The notes beneath the pieces are model-generated. The model saw only the letters and a list, made by a program, of their open reading frames with translations. It was not told the origin of the DNA and did no database searches. Source: a virus (taxonomy: Duplodnaviria; Heunggongvirae; Uroviricota; Caudoviricetes). From it: 4,828 nt of DNA. Below, piece by piece: positions 2,840-4,828 of this stretch (the first letter of the stretch is position 1; each line of letters starts with the position of its first letter). The stretch lies in the IMG/VR virus record IMGVR_UViG_2681813264_000007; one strand, written 5' to 3'. The translations under genes were made by a program, and so were the position numbers.

Positions 2840-2876
2840 ATGGGCGTTTTATGCCTGACGTTAGAAGAGTTTCTAC

Positions 2877-2902
2877 AACCCGCCGCCGAGCGGGTTTTTT
2901 AT
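2877..2902 (+). terminator. Rho-independent terminator, tR'-like (late-operon terminator subject to Q antitermination)
   Basis: GC-rich stem CCCGC (2879-2883) pairing with GCGGG (2890-2894), 6-nt loop, then TTTTTT (2895-2900). Positioned just downstream of Q, as tR' is in lambdoid phages. Confidence 0.65.
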
Positions 2903-3020
2903 GACTGAAATCGCGTCAGTACAGTAAACGCGCTGGTGGCGGTGAATACCTGTCTTTCAGCTTGCTGGCTTTTTCGACAAGAGTTATTGGTGTGTCACGT
3001 TAACCGGAAAAGGAAAAGAC

Positions 3021-3218
3021 ATGCTAAAACAGCAGGATATGACAGAAACCGCCAGAGTGGTGTTTAATGAATTAAGCGTTACCGAACCGGCGACAGTCGG
3101 GGAGATAGCGCAGAATACTTACCTTTCACGCGAACGCTGCCAGTTAATACTGACTCAGCTTGTTATGGCGGGTCTGGCAGATTATCAGTTCGGTTGTTAC
3201 AGACGCCTTCCGCAGTGA
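3021..3218 (+). CDS. Small winged-helix-like DNA-binding protein (65 aa), hypothetical regulator
   Basis: Good SD, AGGA (3011-3014), 6 nt before ATG 3021. The segment TVGEIAQNTYLSRERCQLILTQLVMAGLA has the hydrophobic/Gly pattern of small wHTH regulators (AsnC-N-terminal, PapI/FaeA-like). Family assignment is by pattern only. The stop TGA lies inside a terminator hairpin. Confidence 0.55.
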   Translation: MLKQQDMTETARVVFNELSVTEPATVGEIAQNTYLSRERCQLILTQLVMAGLADYQFGCYRRLPQ

Positions 3219-3230
3219 AGGCTTTTTTAT
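3205..3230 (+). terminator. Rho-independent terminator overlapping the stop codon of the 65-aa ORF
   Basis: Stem GCCTTC (3205-3210) pairing with GAAGGC (3217-3222), loop CGCAGT, then TTTTTT (3223-3228). Confidence 0.6.
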
Positions 3231-3245
3231 TTGTGGTAAATGGGC

Positions 3246-3276
3246 GGCTGGTGGGTGTTAGGGGCACCCACCAGCC
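3246..3276. repeat. Perfect 12-bp inverted repeat with 7-nt loop, carrying a Chi octamer in each arm
   Basis: GGCTGGTGGGTG (3246-3257), loop TTAGGGG, CACCCACCAGCC (3265-3276). GCTGGTGG is on the + strand at 3247-3254 and on the - strand at 3268-3275. No T-tract follows, so it is not a classical terminator. Confidence 0.9.
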
Positions 3277-3317
3277 ATCTGCTCATGCGTTGGGTTCACA
3301 AGCAAACCTCAGGCCCA

Positions 3318-3336
3318 CTGCTTTGCGCAAAAGCAG
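3318..3336. repeat. Second hairpin / near-palindrome in the methyltransferase leader
   Basis: CTGCTTT (3318-3324) pairs with AAAGCAG (3330-3336) around the loop GCGCA. The core TTTGCGCAAA (3322-3331) is a perfect DNA palindrome. Confidence 0.7.
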
Positions 3337-3368
3337 AATGAGCCTATCAGAGACAGGCTTAATGATCC

Positions 3369-4427
3369 ATGCTTAATACTGTAAAAATATCCAGTTGTGA
3401 GTTAATCAACGCCGACTGCCTGGAATTTATCCGGTCGTTACCCGAAAATTCTGTTGACCTGATAGTCACGGACCCGCCGTACTTTAAAGTGAAGCCTGAG
3501 GGCTGGGATAACCAGTGGAAGGGCGACGATGATTACCTGAAGTGGCTGGACCAGTGTCTGGCGCAGTTCTGGCGGGTACTGAAGCCTGCCGGAAGTCTTT
3601 ACCTGTTCTGTGGTCATCGCCTGGCATCTGATATCGAAATCATGATGCGTGAACGCTTCAGTGTGCTGAACCATATTATCTGGGCGAAGCCGTCCGGACG
3701 CTGGAACGGATGCAACAAGGAAAGCCTGCGGGCGTATTTCCCCGCCACAGAGCGCATTCTGTTCGCGGAACATTATCAGGGGCCGTATCGTCCGAAAGAT
3801 GCCGGGTATGCGGCGAAGGGCAGTGCACTGAAACAGCATGTGATGGCCCCGCTGATTTCTTACTTTCGTGATGCGCGAGCTGCCCTGGGGATAACGGCAA
3901 AACAGATTGCAGATGCCACAGGAAAGAAAAACATGGTGTCGCACTGGTTCAGTGCCGGTCAGTGGCAGTTGCCGAATGAAAGCGATTATCTGAAATTACA
4001 GGCGCTGTTTGCCCGGGTGGCAGAAGAGAAGCATCGGCGTGGTGAACTGGAAAAGCTCCACCACCAGCTGGTGGATACGTATACCTCACTGAACCGGCAG
4101 TATGCGGAGCTGCTGAGTGAATATAAACATCTGCGGCGGTATTTTGGCGTGACGGTGCAGGTGCCGTATACCGATGTGTGGACGCATAAACCGGTGCAGT
4201 TCTATCCCGGGAAACATCCGTGCGAAAAACCGGCAGAAATGCTGCAGCAGATAATCAGCGCTAGCAGTCGTCCGGGTGACCTGATTGCAGATTTTTTCAT
4301 GGGGTTGGGTTCGACAGTGAAAGCGGCACTGGCGCTCGGGCGTCGTGCAATTGGCGTTGAGCTGGAGACTGAACGTTTTGAGCAGACGGTTCGGGAAGTA
4401 CAGGATTTAGTCAGCCAGAACGGATGA
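3369..4427 (+). CDS. DNA methyltransferase, beta-class N6-adenine/N4-cytosine amino-MTase (N6_N4_Mtase fold), apparently orphan
   Basis: 352 aa. The catalytic DPPY motif lies near the N-terminus (VDLIVTDPPYF, nt 3471-3482) and the AdoMet-binding FxGxG motif near the C-terminus (DLIADFFMGLGSTV). Motif IV before motif I defines the beta permutation. A roughly 130-aa variable region between them is the presumed target-recognition domain. No restriction endonuclease gene is adjacent. Confidence 0.9.
   Translation: MLNTVKISSCELINADCLEFIRSLPENSVDLIVTDPPYFKVKPEGWDNQWKGDDDYLKWLDQCLAQFWRVLKPAGSLYLFCGHRLASDIEIMMRERFSVLNHIIWAKPSGRWNGCNKESLRAYFPATERILFAEHYQGPYRPKDAGYAAKGSALKQHVMAPLISYFRDARAALGITAKQIADATGKKNMVSHWFSAGQWQLPNESDYLKLQALFARVAEEKHRRGELEKLHHQLVDTYTSLNRQYAELLSEYKHLRRYFGVTVQVPYTDVWTHKPVQFYPGKHPCEKPAEMLQQIISASSRPGDLIADFFMGLGSTVKAALALGRRAIGVELETERFEQTVREVQDLVSQNG
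4061..4074. repeat. 14-bp perfect palindrome CCACCAGCTGGTGG containing Chi on both strands, inside the methyltransferase CDS
   Basis: Direct reading: CCACCAGC (4061-4068, Chi on - strand) overlaps GCTGGTGG (4067-4074, Chi on + strand). It encodes the H-Q-L-V-D stretch of the methyltransferase. Confidence 0.9.
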
Positions 4428-4429
4428 TA

Positions 4430-4458
4430 TTGAAGAATTAATTACGCGTCGTTATTAT
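4430..4458 (+). promoter_or_regulatory. Candidate sigma70 promoter for the tRNA cluster
   Basis: TTGAAG (4430-4435), 17-bp spacer, TATTAT (4453-4458), then a GC-rich discriminator GCGGCTCC. The predicted start lies a few nt before the first tRNA at 4468. Motif-based only. Confidence 0.45.
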
Positions 4459-4467
4459 GCGGCTCCC

Positions 4468-4543
4468 GGCCCTTTAGCTCAGTGGTGAGAGCGAGCGACT
4501 CATAATCGCCAGGTCGCTGGTTCAAATCCAGCAAGGGCCACCA
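4468..4543 (+). tRNA. ileZ: tRNA with CAT anticodon, most likely tRNA-Ile2 (lysidine, AUA-reading; ileX/ileZ-like) rather than tRNA-Met
   Basis: Manual cloverleaf: acceptor GGCCCTT pairs with AAGGGCC; D-arm GCTC/GAGC; anticodon loop CTCATAA (CAT at 4501-4503); T-arm GCTGG-TTCAAAT-CCAGC; discriminator A; encoded CCA. The anticodon arm GCGACTCATAATCGC resembles E. coli ileX. The symbol is by analogy with the ileZ-argN-argO trio of Stx phages and is tentative. Confidence 0.8.
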
Positions 4544-4550
4544 TCACATA

Positions 4551-4627
4551 CCGCCATTAGCTCATCAGGAAAGAGCGCCAGCCTTCGAAGCTGGCTGCGC
4601 GGGGTTCAAGTCCCCGATGGCGGTCCA
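4551..4627 (+). tRNA. argN: tRNA-Arg, anticodon TCG (reads CGA/CGG)
   Basis: Manual cloverleaf: acceptor CCGCCAT pairs with ATGGCGG (C1:G72); D-arm GCTC/GAGC; anticodon stem CCAGC/GCTGG with loop CTTCGAA (TCG at 4585-4587); T-arm CGGGG-TTCAAGT-CCCCG; discriminator T; encoded CCA. The symbol is by positional analogy only. Confidence 0.75.
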
Positions 4628-4640
4628 TTATCTGCATCAT

Positions 4641-4717
4641 GCGTTGTTAGCTCAGCCGGACAGAGCAATTGCCTTCTAAGCAATCGGTCACTGGTTCGAA
4701 TCCAGTACAACGCGCCA
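4641..4717 (+). tRNA. argO: tRNA-Arg, anticodon TCT (reads AGA/AGG; argU-like)
   Basis: Manual cloverleaf: acceptor GCGTTGT pairs with ACAACGC; D-arm GCTC/GAGC; anticodon stem ATTGC/GCAAT with loop CTTCTAA (TCT at 4675-4677); T-arm ACTGG-TTCGAAT-CCAGT; discriminator G; encoded CCA. Resembles E. coli argU. The symbol is by positional analogy only. Confidence 0.8.
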
Positions 4718-4731
4718 CACTTATTTTCCCT

Positions 4732-4757
4732 GGCTCGCTTTTGCGGGCCTTTTTTTT
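4732..4757 (+). terminator. Rho-independent terminator after the tRNA cluster
   Basis: Stem GGCTCGC (4732-4738) pairs with GCGGGCC (4743-4749) with one G-U pair, loop TTTT, followed by eight T (4750-4757). Confidence 0.7.
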
Positions 4758-4828
4758 AAATGTCTCACAATTCAGACGGTTGACAGTTGTCTGTTTTGCG
4801 GGGAGTTTGTTAAAAGAAACTGGCATGG

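Follow-up and report, generated by a model that had tools for sequence, protein, structure and literature searches.

A putative structured leader RNA and a small winged-helix gene beside an M.EcoGII-family methyltransferase in the late region of a lambdoid prophage

Introduction

The adenine methyltransferase M.EcoGII is widely used in the laboratory for marking accessible DNA and RNA. Its natural role is thought to be that of a wide-ranging protection against restriction in lambdoid phages, those with Shiga toxin included. The present analysis concerns a close relative of M.EcoGII encoded in a 4,828-nucleotide (nt) stretch of viral DNA of the Caudoviricetes (IMG/VR record IMGVR_UViG_2681813264_000007), referred to throughout as the window, together with two elements that precede its gene, namely an open reading frame (ORF) for a 65-residue winged-helix protein and a putative structured leader RNA of ~135 nt. 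The reading favoured here, with moderate confidence, is that a toxic hypermethylase is subject to Q-dependent transcription and to post-transcriptional gating, with the winged-helix protein as an accessory regulator.

M.EcoGII was described by Murray et al. (2018; PMC5778455) as a non-specific adenine methyltransferase of an E. coli O104:H4 prophage, which methylates adenine in any context of double-stranded DNA, single-stranded DNA and RNA, and which both binds and methylates RNA in vitro. The enzyme was not expressed in the lysogen and was deleterious, slowing growth, when expressed, and the authors proposed that it is switched on at prophage induction to overcome restriction. M.EcoGI, which is 95% identical to M.EcoGII, is also non-specific, and phage 1720a-02 was named as the carrier of a very similar enzyme (PMC5778455). 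Reconstructed ancestors of the M.EcoGII clade stay non-site-specific (PMC11551740), and a 2025 review groups M.EcoGII with Mom as ‘silent in lysogens and toxic’ (PMC12707154). The available papers on M.EcoGII thus report silence in lysogens and harm upon expression, but how the phage holds the enzyme off and then turns it on is not explained in them.

In phage Mu, mom is controlled post-transcriptionally through mRNA structure near the start codon and through a small dedicated protein, Com, which is a translational activator. For the window, an original prediction made from the letters of the DNA had described a 65-residue ORF with its own ribosome-binding site and terminator, a spacer of 150 nt with two palindromes, and a DPPY methyltransferase, and all of these elements were recovered at the positions given for them.

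Identity of the methyltransferase

The methyltransferase gene (3369-4427, + strand) encodes 352 residues, and the search for PF01555 gave a match of 144 bits against a cut-off of 26.7 (E = 8e-42), confirming the predicted beta-class amino-methyltransferase. The order of motifs is that of the M.EcoGII family, with DPPY at the N-terminus (residues 35-38; 3471-3482), a central target-recognition domain, and FxGxG at the C-terminus (residues 310-314; ~4293-4310). A weak helix-turn-helix match at residues 167-195 lies inside the central domain, as has been described for M.EcoGII. Over the whole length, 324 of 349 residues (93%) are identical to M.EcoGII with 2 gaps, although the reference was machine-read from the PDF of Supplementary Table S1 of PMC11551740 and a few of the mismatches may be errors of optical character recognition. 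The ~25 substitutions fall mainly in the central domain and the linker. The enzyme, which the original prediction had regarded as an orphan, is almost certainly a member of the M.EcoGII family, and context-independent methylation of adenine is inferred for it from the 93% identity. It is in itself ordinary and already known, and the role of self-protection against restriction that had been suggested for it is the one proposed by the authors of M.EcoGII (PMC5778455).

Motif I of the window enzyme reads FFMGLG rather than FFMGSG, owing to a change of Ser313 to Leu313 (TCG to TTG at 4305-4307). Serine is found in 176 of 180 family members among the collected loci, and leucine in the other four, all of them 100% identical to the window; the variant still fits the formal FxGxG pattern. 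Phage 1720a-02 has 94.5% nt identity to the window and carries the same two-gene module, and the full module is also present in the locus nearest M.EcoGII among those collected (L067; 97% to the machine-read sequence).

A conserved leader RNA

The spacer between the small ORF and the methyltransferase gene is exactly 150 nt in the window (3219-3368) and 147-154 nt in all loci where the stop codon of the small ORF is intact. Averaged over sequence pairs, nt identity is 78% in the leader, 61% in the small ORF, 64-73% in segments of the methyltransferase gene and 53% in the region 5' of the small ORF, and the mean column identity of the leader is 82% over 20 loci whose small proteins diverge to 41%. 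The leader (3234-3368, + strand), delimited with alignments A2 and A3, RNAalifold and pair counts, is predicted to fold into a three-way junction followed by two hairpins. RNAalifold on 20 diverse sequences gave P1 (UGGGC/GCCCA; 3241-3245 with 3313-3317), which closes the junction, P3 (3278-3283 with 3301-3306), and, in agreement with the inverted repeat visible in the DNA, P2 (3246-3257 with 3265-3276), the 12-nt arms of which are 100% complementary. The hairpins are P4 (CTGCTTT/AAAGCAG; 3318-3324 with 3330-3336), apparent from the sequence and from RNAalifold, and P5 (3339-3345 with 3355-3361), obtained from per-sequence folds. The two palindromes of the original prediction are therefore present, but they are predicted to be helices P2 and P4 of one conserved RNA and not separate operators.

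Support for this structure comes principally from covariation. In a 20-sequence MAFFT alignment, made independently of any covariance model, 96% of pair cells were paired and 8 pairs showed double changes; none of 500 shuffles reached the observed values, and sliding the partners by 1-3 columns reduced pairing to 25-50%. The same answer was given by an 82-sequence alignment, with double changes in 23 of 24 pairs (339 cells) and pairing of 92%, compared with 72% for shuffles and at most 43% for slid controls, although this alignment was fitted to the covariance model and its pairing is inflated in consequence. In P1, G-C has changed to A-U by compensatory substitution of bases 70 nt apart, and P5 also covaries, Vibrio-type loci having AGUCU/AGACU in place of AGCCU/AGGCU. 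Many G-U pairs are present, on the + strand only, and the selected molecule would therefore be the late transcript rather than the DNA duplex. The leader is more stable than shuffled sequences (z = -3.4) and contains the conserved unpaired motifs CAUG, GUCACA and AGCCUA. Taken together, these data indicate with high confidence that the leader is a genuine structured RNA.

The covariance model, which was derived from the 20-sequence alignment, located the element on the + strand only and directly 5' of the methyltransferase gene in all enterobacterial loci tested. Scores in more distant phages, none of which gave a small ORF by tblastn, were 63 bits in phiKO2, 60 in VHML, 47 in N15, 41 in PhiR46_1 and 29 in Aeromonas phiARM81ld. 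The leader was further recognised in 126 of 160 distant IMG/VR loci, comprising 54 of 80 and 72 of 80 loci recovered with the VHML and N15 methyltransferases, respectively, and a model rebuilt for the 34 loci without a match rescued two. It abuts the start of the methyltransferase or com-like gene at a fixed distance and was found nowhere else in ~1.4 Mb of related phage DNA. A cmscan against Rfam 15 (E up to 1) returned no family for the leader and, in the window, only three tRNAs and chance matches; the sole overlap with the leader was a sub-threshold P26 match on the opposite strand.

At its 3' end the leader adjoins the start codon of the methyltransferase. In the window, the only Shine-Dalgarno-like sequence before the gene is AGG at 3355-3357, which is paired within P5, and the main enterobacterial group has no Shine-Dalgarno sequence before the conserved GAUCYAUG. 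The Dam site within this motif, GATC at 3364-3367, precedes the methyltransferase ATG by 2 nt, and 20 diverse loci all have it unchanged (GATCYATG).

Several other functions were considered for the spacer and rejected. A leader peptide was suggested by an invariant AUG at the 5' edge of the leader, but the ORF that follows ranges from 3 to 58 codons, ends variously and is absent in N15-type loci; because neither length nor frame is conserved, selection would act on the RNA. A riboswitch-like toggle, in which the 5' strand of P1 (UGGGC) pairs alternatively with the AGCCUA after P4, was discarded on column counts, as AGCCUA stays the same in N15-type sequences with an altered P1. Scanning gave no promoter within the spacer, and the sequence TGTGGTAAAT on the 5' margin of the leader, though similar to an extended -10 element, is not kept in this form at other loci.

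The small winged-helix protein

The small ORF (3021-3218, + strand; ATG at 3021, TGA at 3218) was assigned to phrog_331 (E = 1.4e-37), a PHROGs family of unknown function, and carries the NCBI label ‘TrmB family transcriptional regulator’. That name rests on sub-threshold similarity. All Pfam matches lie below the curated cut-offs (TrmB 18.0 against 25.6; MarR_2 14.7 against 27; HTH_24 12.8 against 21.9), and there were zero NCBIfam matches. The winged helix that the original prediction had seen in this protein thus appeared in the profile searches for helix-turn-helix families only at sub-threshold level, but was borne out by modelling. An AlphaFold (AF2) model built on an alignment of 20 homologues had a predicted local distance difference test score of 93 and comprises helices at residues 9-16, 26-33 and 37-49 with a beta hairpin at 53-62. 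Foldseek searches of PDB and BFVD matched the model to OhrR/MarR (TM-score 0.80), IclR, the dimerisation domains of O-methyltransferases, RNA-binding winged-helix domains of SelB, and MotA. The fold is clear in the model, but a winged helix does not by itself identify its ligand.

The conserved core of the protein is MLKQQDMTE...RCQLILTQLVMAGL. An exhaustive profile-free search found 61 relatives among 1.8 billion representative proteins, nearly all of them small, and a separate homology search returned named homologues from Escherichia, Shigella, Salmonella, Klebsiella, Citrobacter and Buttiauxella. The small ORF is therefore a real gene of a narrow family.

The gene also has signals of its own. 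A Shine-Dalgarno sequence (AAGGA; 3010-3014) lies 6 nt before the ATG, alignment A4 shows a conserved purine-rich block ahead of this codon, and an intrinsic terminator, identified by a terminator scan, overlaps the stop codon (3205-3228; TTTTTT after a stem at 3205-3222). Folding of 20 diverse loci gave, in each of them, a hairpin whose loop contains the stop codon. Invariant columns of alignment A4 further define an element, CTTGCTG-N13-AGAGTTAT..TGTCAC, 23-60 nt 5' of the ATG (2961-2998, + strand; 38 nt), which 112 of 275 loci contain, each in a single copy and always on the + strand, these loci being of the window's own architecture (type A, below). It resembles a weak sigma-70 promoter (TTGCTG-17-TATTGG), yet AGAGTTA is invariant where a promoter spacer should vary, and it is best regarded as a candidate weak promoter or operator of the winged-helix gene. 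Together with the terminator, this element suggests that the gene could be expressed on its own.

Gene linkage and locus architectures

Adjacency was the basis on which the two genes had been connected, and the connection holds across species. Among 83 related viral and phage loci found through the methyltransferase, the small ORF lies ~348 nt 5' of it (start to start) in 81, the exceptions being a contig end and a rearranged locus. Conversely, among 23 loci from different species found through the small ORF, an M.EcoGII-family methyltransferase gene lies 340-355 nt 3' of it in 22, and the linkage persists even where the small protein has only 41% identity, as in a Plesiomonas genome. The linkage is genuine and the layout is not due to chance. 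The module follows Q genes of differing types and therefore moves as a unit.

Profile searches of the ORFs 5' of the methyltransferase distinguished four architectures. Type A, that of the window, has tR', the small winged-helix gene, its terminator, the leader and the methyltransferase gene. In type B (N15, phiKO2 and PhiR46_1), a distant winged-helix homologue, gp51, is followed by the late promoter and terminator, the leader and the methyltransferase gene; gp51 of N15 and phiKO2 matched the small-protein profile with E = 2e-6 to 3e-5 in a set of only 14 candidate ORFs. Type C (Vibrio and Aeromonas phages) is without the winged-helix gene and has a small zinc-ribbon gene between leader and methyltransferase. 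The zinc ribbon of Aeromonas phiARM81ld (L113, 1829-2044) is like Com of phage Mu (PF10122, 27.9 bits against a cut-off of 22.9), and those of the Vibrio-type loci (L119-L133; ~-134 to -9 from the methyltransferase start) are Com-like at sub-threshold level; at the corresponding place the window has only spacer and no Com zinc ribbon. Type D, which includes loci L158 and L245, consists of Q, a terminator, the leader and the methyltransferase gene, without any small gene.

The constant core is thus terminator, leader and methyltransferase, and the small protein is a frequent but not universal accessory. The leader RNA is a steadier companion of the methyltransferase than is the winged-helix gene, and its persistence with the methyltransferase in type D implies that the leader does not need the small protein in order to work. 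In N15, the leader comes directly after the terminator and gp51 lies 5' of the promoter. The late-promoter region of N15 (L112, 1776-1870) is homologous to the early PR' transcript and tR' of the window (gggatttttacgcctgac versus gggcgttttatgcctgac), and the winged-helix cassette has therefore moved relative to the same promoter while staying beside it.

Some loci depart from these arrangements through decay or rearrangement. In L100 (Erwinia tracheiphila) the small ORF lacks a stop codon (114 residues) and the methyltransferase gene is frameshifted, L101 has kept the leader but is without a methyltransferase, and in L006 ~1.9 kb of other DNA replaces the small ORF. Protein identity to the E. 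coli prophage module is 97-98% in L084, a 2.5-kb contig that bears the label ‘MAG: Bacillus sp.’, probably through misbinning or contamination in the database entry. Two Vibrio-type loci without a detectable leader, L130 (-456 to -175) and L137 (-379 to -176 from the methyltransferase start), encode small proteins with an I-x-x-I/V-x-EQL motif, which recalls the LILTQL helix; these may be more distant winged-helix homologues that the profile missed.

Proposed control of the hypermethylase

The window represents the late-regulatory region of a lambdoid E. coli prophage, with all listed genes on the + strand. The Q antiterminator gene (1978 to ~2799; PF03589, E = 1.6e-53) ends within a run of 42 N (2798-2839) that masks both its stop codon and the late promoter PR'. 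Both features were taken from a 97%-identical E. coli locus (L001), in which the Q homologue has 273 residues and is annotated as an antitermination protein, and the PR' equivalent (3957-3995; TTGATT-16-TGgTAAATT) is a plausible promoter. The short PR' transcript would end at a tR'-like intrinsic terminator (2877-2902, + strand; stem region 2877-2896), which was recognised in a terminator scan by its 7-base-pair (bp) stem and T run. The position of this terminator is kept in 19 diverse loci of alignment A4, and it is homologous to the terminator region of the N15 late promoter. A consensus scan found no sigma-70-like promoter between 2840 and 3368. With two terminators and no promoter-like site before the methyltransferase, only Q-modified polymerase should therefore reach the gene, which agrees with the reported silence of M.EcoGII in lysogens. 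The original prediction had placed the module between tR' and the tRNA genes and under Q read-through; that placement was confirmed, and Q-dependent late expression is the natural and, from this layout, the likely reading.

Within the favoured reading, the region would be the first cargo cassette of a lambdoid prophage late operon. Behind PR'/tR' and the second terminator at 3205-3228, the methyltransferase gene would be silent in the lysogen; after induction, Q would render RNA polymerase terminator-resistant, the gene would be transcribed, and progeny DNA would become heavily N6-methylated and so evade many host restriction systems. The toxicity of the enzyme would call for a second layer of control within the transcript, which the P1-P2-P3 junction and hairpins P4 and P5 of the folded leader may provide. 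As the leader ends a few bases before a start codon that lacks a good Shine-Dalgarno sequence, and as AGG is paired in P5, the structure may set the level of methyltransferase translation. The leader is read as a translational gate because it is strongly selected, because it abuts a start poor in Shine-Dalgarno sequence, and because a Com-like protein occupies the same spot in sister lineages; action in cis on translation is considered marginally probable. For the winged-helix protein, the likeliest role would be that of a trans-acting regulator of the cassette, binding either the leader RNA or the DNA that encodes it, and it would then be a functional analogue of Com for Mu mom. This last part of the proposal is tentative. 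In type-A loci, the conserved recognition helix RCQLILTQL accompanies conserved outer arms and the 5' loop half of P2 (GGCUGG...GUGUU...CCAGCC), an association that hints at contact with the leader, although shared ancestry confounds it and L158 and L245 contradict it. A strict co-variation between presence of the winged-helix gene and the sequence of P2 was rejected on the same two loci.

Several observations weigh against the proposal, or against parts of it. The type-D loci L158 and L245 have the same P2 as loci with the winged-helix gene, yet the gene is absent from them, and in N15-type phages a late promoter and terminator sit between the winged-helix gene and the leader, so that the transcriptional relation differs. 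The small protein is slightly acidic by residue count and is without a detectable dimerisation domain, while the Foldseek matches have E-values of only ~1e-3 and include winged-helix domains engaged in protein-protein interaction. For the leader, the inflated pairing of the larger alignment has been noted above, and ~20% of distant methyltransferase loci have no detectable leader even with the rebuilt model, the element being either absent from them or diverged past recognition. The Leu313 allele of the window may be weakened, and it is from the layout only that expression timing and the leader's role are deduced.

A bolder version of the proposal can be formulated, but is improbable as a whole. 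The leader would constitute an undescribed class of cis-regulatory RNA for M.EcoGII-type hypermethylases in temperate phages of Enterobacterales, Vibrio and Aeromonas. The 65-residue protein would be an RNA-binding winged helix, like that of SelB bound to its hairpin, which is made from its own promoter and restrains the toxic enzyme at the level of translation until the cell is flooded with late transcript. Such a switch would be new and independent of Com-mom, with a Com-like replacement in other lineages.

Alternative explanations

The small protein may instead have a function of its own, for example in anti-defence, in reading heavily methylated DNA or as a binding partner of the enzyme, and simply travel with the methyltransferase in a mobile late-operon cassette, in which the leader acts alone or binds the methyltransferase, the ribosome or something else. 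The conserved upstream element and terminator are as expected of an autonomous unit, leader and methyltransferase occur without the small gene, and N15-type phages separate that gene transcriptionally from the methyltransferase. The top Foldseek matches, among them the winged-helix dimerisation domains of methyltransferases and other protein-binding winged helices, would suit such a role, and autoregulation by the enzyme itself is conceivable given the activity of M.EcoGII on RNA in vitro (PMC5778455). This explanation is nevertheless unlikely. All but one of the 23 species-level copies of the small gene stand beside this one methyltransferase family, at a fixed distance and despite divergence to 41% identity, and a family with as few as 61 representatives was seen nowhere else. 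The neighbourhood was kept even after rearrangement relative to the promoter in N15, which argues for a functional tie.

A transcriptional controller is more doubtful still. Here the winged-helix protein would be a DNA-binding transcription factor and the spacer palindromes its operators, switching transcription of the methyltransferase much as a C-protein would. MarR/OhrR and IclR are the best full-domain Foldseek matches, the genes are tightly linked, the spacer holds a perfect 12-bp inverted repeat, and the outer arms of P2 (GGCTGG/CCAGCC) are nearly constant in loci that bear the winged-helix gene. However, the arms of the repeat evolve by compensatory pairs with G-U tolerated, which breaks the symmetry of the DNA, and the repeat is one helix of a larger junction in which P1 pairs bases 70 nt apart with compensatory exchange of G-C for A-U. 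The same structure is present in loci without the protein, and the spacer has no promoter-like site to be controlled. Elsewhere in the window the P2 half-site has a single match with 2 mismatches, which is within the range of shuffles. The likeness to a controller protein that had been drawn originally also failed at the level of family, since the small protein is neither an Xre-type C-protein nor a member of PapI/FaeA, and the absence of a nuclease was upheld: no nuclease partner was found in the window, in the annotated 10-kb surroundings of the 97%-identical E. coli locus or in other annotated neighbourhoods of homologues.

There is also a small chance that the conserved RNA, rather than being a translational leader, is processed into a stable small RNA with trans activity on phage or host mRNAs, or is an element of RNA processing or stability whose only role is to fix the 5' end of the methyltransferase mRNA. 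Many small RNAs are encoded 3' of PR' in lambdoid prophages (PMC4104026; bioRxiv 10.64898/2026.05.13.724894), the element is compact and very stable, and the unpaired CAUG, GUCACA and AGCCUA could be seed or recognition sequences. Against this stand its fixed distance to the methyltransferase or com-like start, its confinement to that position in the related phage DNA, and the lack of a terminator after it. The known prophage small RNAs AgvB, AsxR, STnc100/PasD and StxS-like RNAs were considered and rejected, with no Rfam match at E up to 1; PasD sits 5' of the esterase gene further downstream (bioRxiv 10.64898/2026.05.13.724894).

Finally, a PapI/Dam-like epigenetic switch, in which the small protein and the methyltransferase would set a heritable, site-specific methylation pattern and thereby control late or cargo genes, is highly improbable: PapI is also a small winged-helix protein and GATC is invariant 2 nt before the methyltransferase ATG, but the enzyme belongs to the non-specific M.EcoGII family and not to Dam, the small protein has no PapI/FaeA match in Pfam, and a maintained pattern would be unexpected of an enzyme family reported as silent in lysogens (PMC5778455). 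Regulation through methylation, which the original prediction had entertained, and the appearance of a new methylated motif are unlikely for the same reason, the enzyme being a relative of the non-specific M.EcoGII.

Genomic setting

Upstream of Q, the window contains a DUF968/HNH-like gene (542-1600) and rusA (1601-1981), both on the + strand. Downstream of the methyltransferase, ARAGORN and Rfam identified three tRNA genes on the + strand (4468-4717) with anticodons CAU (ileZ-type), UCG (Arg) and UCU (Arg), which RefSeq labels as tRNA-Ile, Arg and Arg at a related E. coli locus. The cluster is followed by a terminator at 4732-4757 (+ strand; terminator scan) and preceded by a promoter-like site, TTGAAG-17-TATTAT, found by the consensus scan at 4430-4458 (+ strand), from which the tRNA genes might be expressed without Q.

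At least 80% of window positions 2840-4828 is present in 1761 of 5426 complete E. coli genomes and likewise in Stx2a, Stx2c and Stx2d phages, phiP27 and phage 1720a-02. In related elements the tRNA genes are followed by stx genes or an esterase gene, and then by holin and lysozyme genes, and the order of Q, terminator, small ORF, terminator, methyltransferase, tRNAs or toxin, holin and lysozyme is seen in E. coli, phiP27, mEp460, and Hafnia and Providencia phages. The cassette is directly followed by the tRNAs and, in related phages, by the Shiga toxin genes, and its terminators and RNA structure therefore belong to the toxin-delivering transcript.

Directly 3' of tR' is a mini-ORF encoding MTEIASVQ* (ATGACTGAAATCGCG...; 2901-2927), which over its first 15 nt shares 87% identity with codons 7-11 of the small ORF (ATGACAGAAACCGCC, MTETA; 3039-3053). 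The tails of the two terminators are also alike (GGGTTTTTTAT and GGCTTTTTTAT). These resemblances may be traces of recombination left when the winged-helix cassette was inserted, or may be due to chance.

Comparison with known systems

Two components of the cassette seem to be new, namely a leader RNA that is widely conserved, covaries and has no counterpart in Rfam, and a narrow winged-helix family that is tied to the cassette and has Com-like proteins in its place elsewhere. A literature search of incomplete coverage, which is no proof of absence, returned no description of the small protein, of the leader, or of any regulator of M.EcoGII or N15 gp52. The concrete candidate parts by which such an enzyme may be held off and then turned on are two terminators that require Q, a leader conserved in phages of several bacterial orders, and a dedicated small protein, either winged-helix or Com-like. 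If leader and protein do gate translation, the RNA catalogues would gain one more family.

The closest described systems are M.EcoGII and M.EcoGI, with which the window enzyme shares, in the case of M.EcoGII, 93% identity, the order of motifs, the size class (352 versus 349 residues) and the kind of host element. It differs in its ~25 substitutions and in Leu313, and the activity of the window copy is a prediction. The upstream winged-helix gene and the leader RNA are unmentioned in the M.EcoGII publications. The gp51-gp52 pair of N15 and phiKO2 has a distant winged-helix homologue, the same leader RNA (47-63 bits), a methyltransferase (gp52) that is 56-60% identical, and lysis genes after it, but there the late promoter and terminator stand between the winged-helix gene and the leader, whereas the winged-helix gene of the window lies 3' of both PR' and tR'.

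Other resemblances are more limited. C-protein controllers of type II restriction-modification systems are likewise small proteins of DNA-binding type encoded beside a methyltransferase, but they are Xre-type helix-turn-helix dimers that act on C-boxes 5' of their own gene and time the nuclease, whereas the cassette has a winged helix, no nuclease and predicted RNA helices in place of operators; the small protein has no HTH_3 or Xre match in Pfam. The PapI/Lrp/Dam switch needs a GATC-specific Dam-type enzyme and paired GATC sites, as opposed to an M.EcoGII-type enzyme and a single conserved GATC at 3364-3367; no PapI/FaeA match was found in Pfam at E up to 1, and no PapI structure was among the best 50 Foldseek matches. 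With TrmB and MarR regulators the small protein shares the topology of helix-turn-helix plus wing (TM-score of 0.80 to OhrR), but it falls below the Pfam cut-offs and, at 65 residues, is without their dimerisation helices and sensor domains.

The comparison with com-mom of phage Mu is of a different kind. Like Mom, the M.EcoGII-type enzyme would be a late, broadly acting and toxic modifier of DNA in a temperate phage, kept silent during lysogeny (PMC12707154), and a Com-like gene is actually present in the Aeromonas and Vibrio relatives of the cassette. Mom, however, is not a methyltransferase, the small protein of the window is a predicted winged helix and not a zinc ribbon, and a multi-helix leader of ~135 nt stands in place of a single hairpin. 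The cassette would thus resemble com-mom in logic only and, if its leader and small protein do gate translation, would represent a second and independent answer to the problem handled in Mu by Com and mom.

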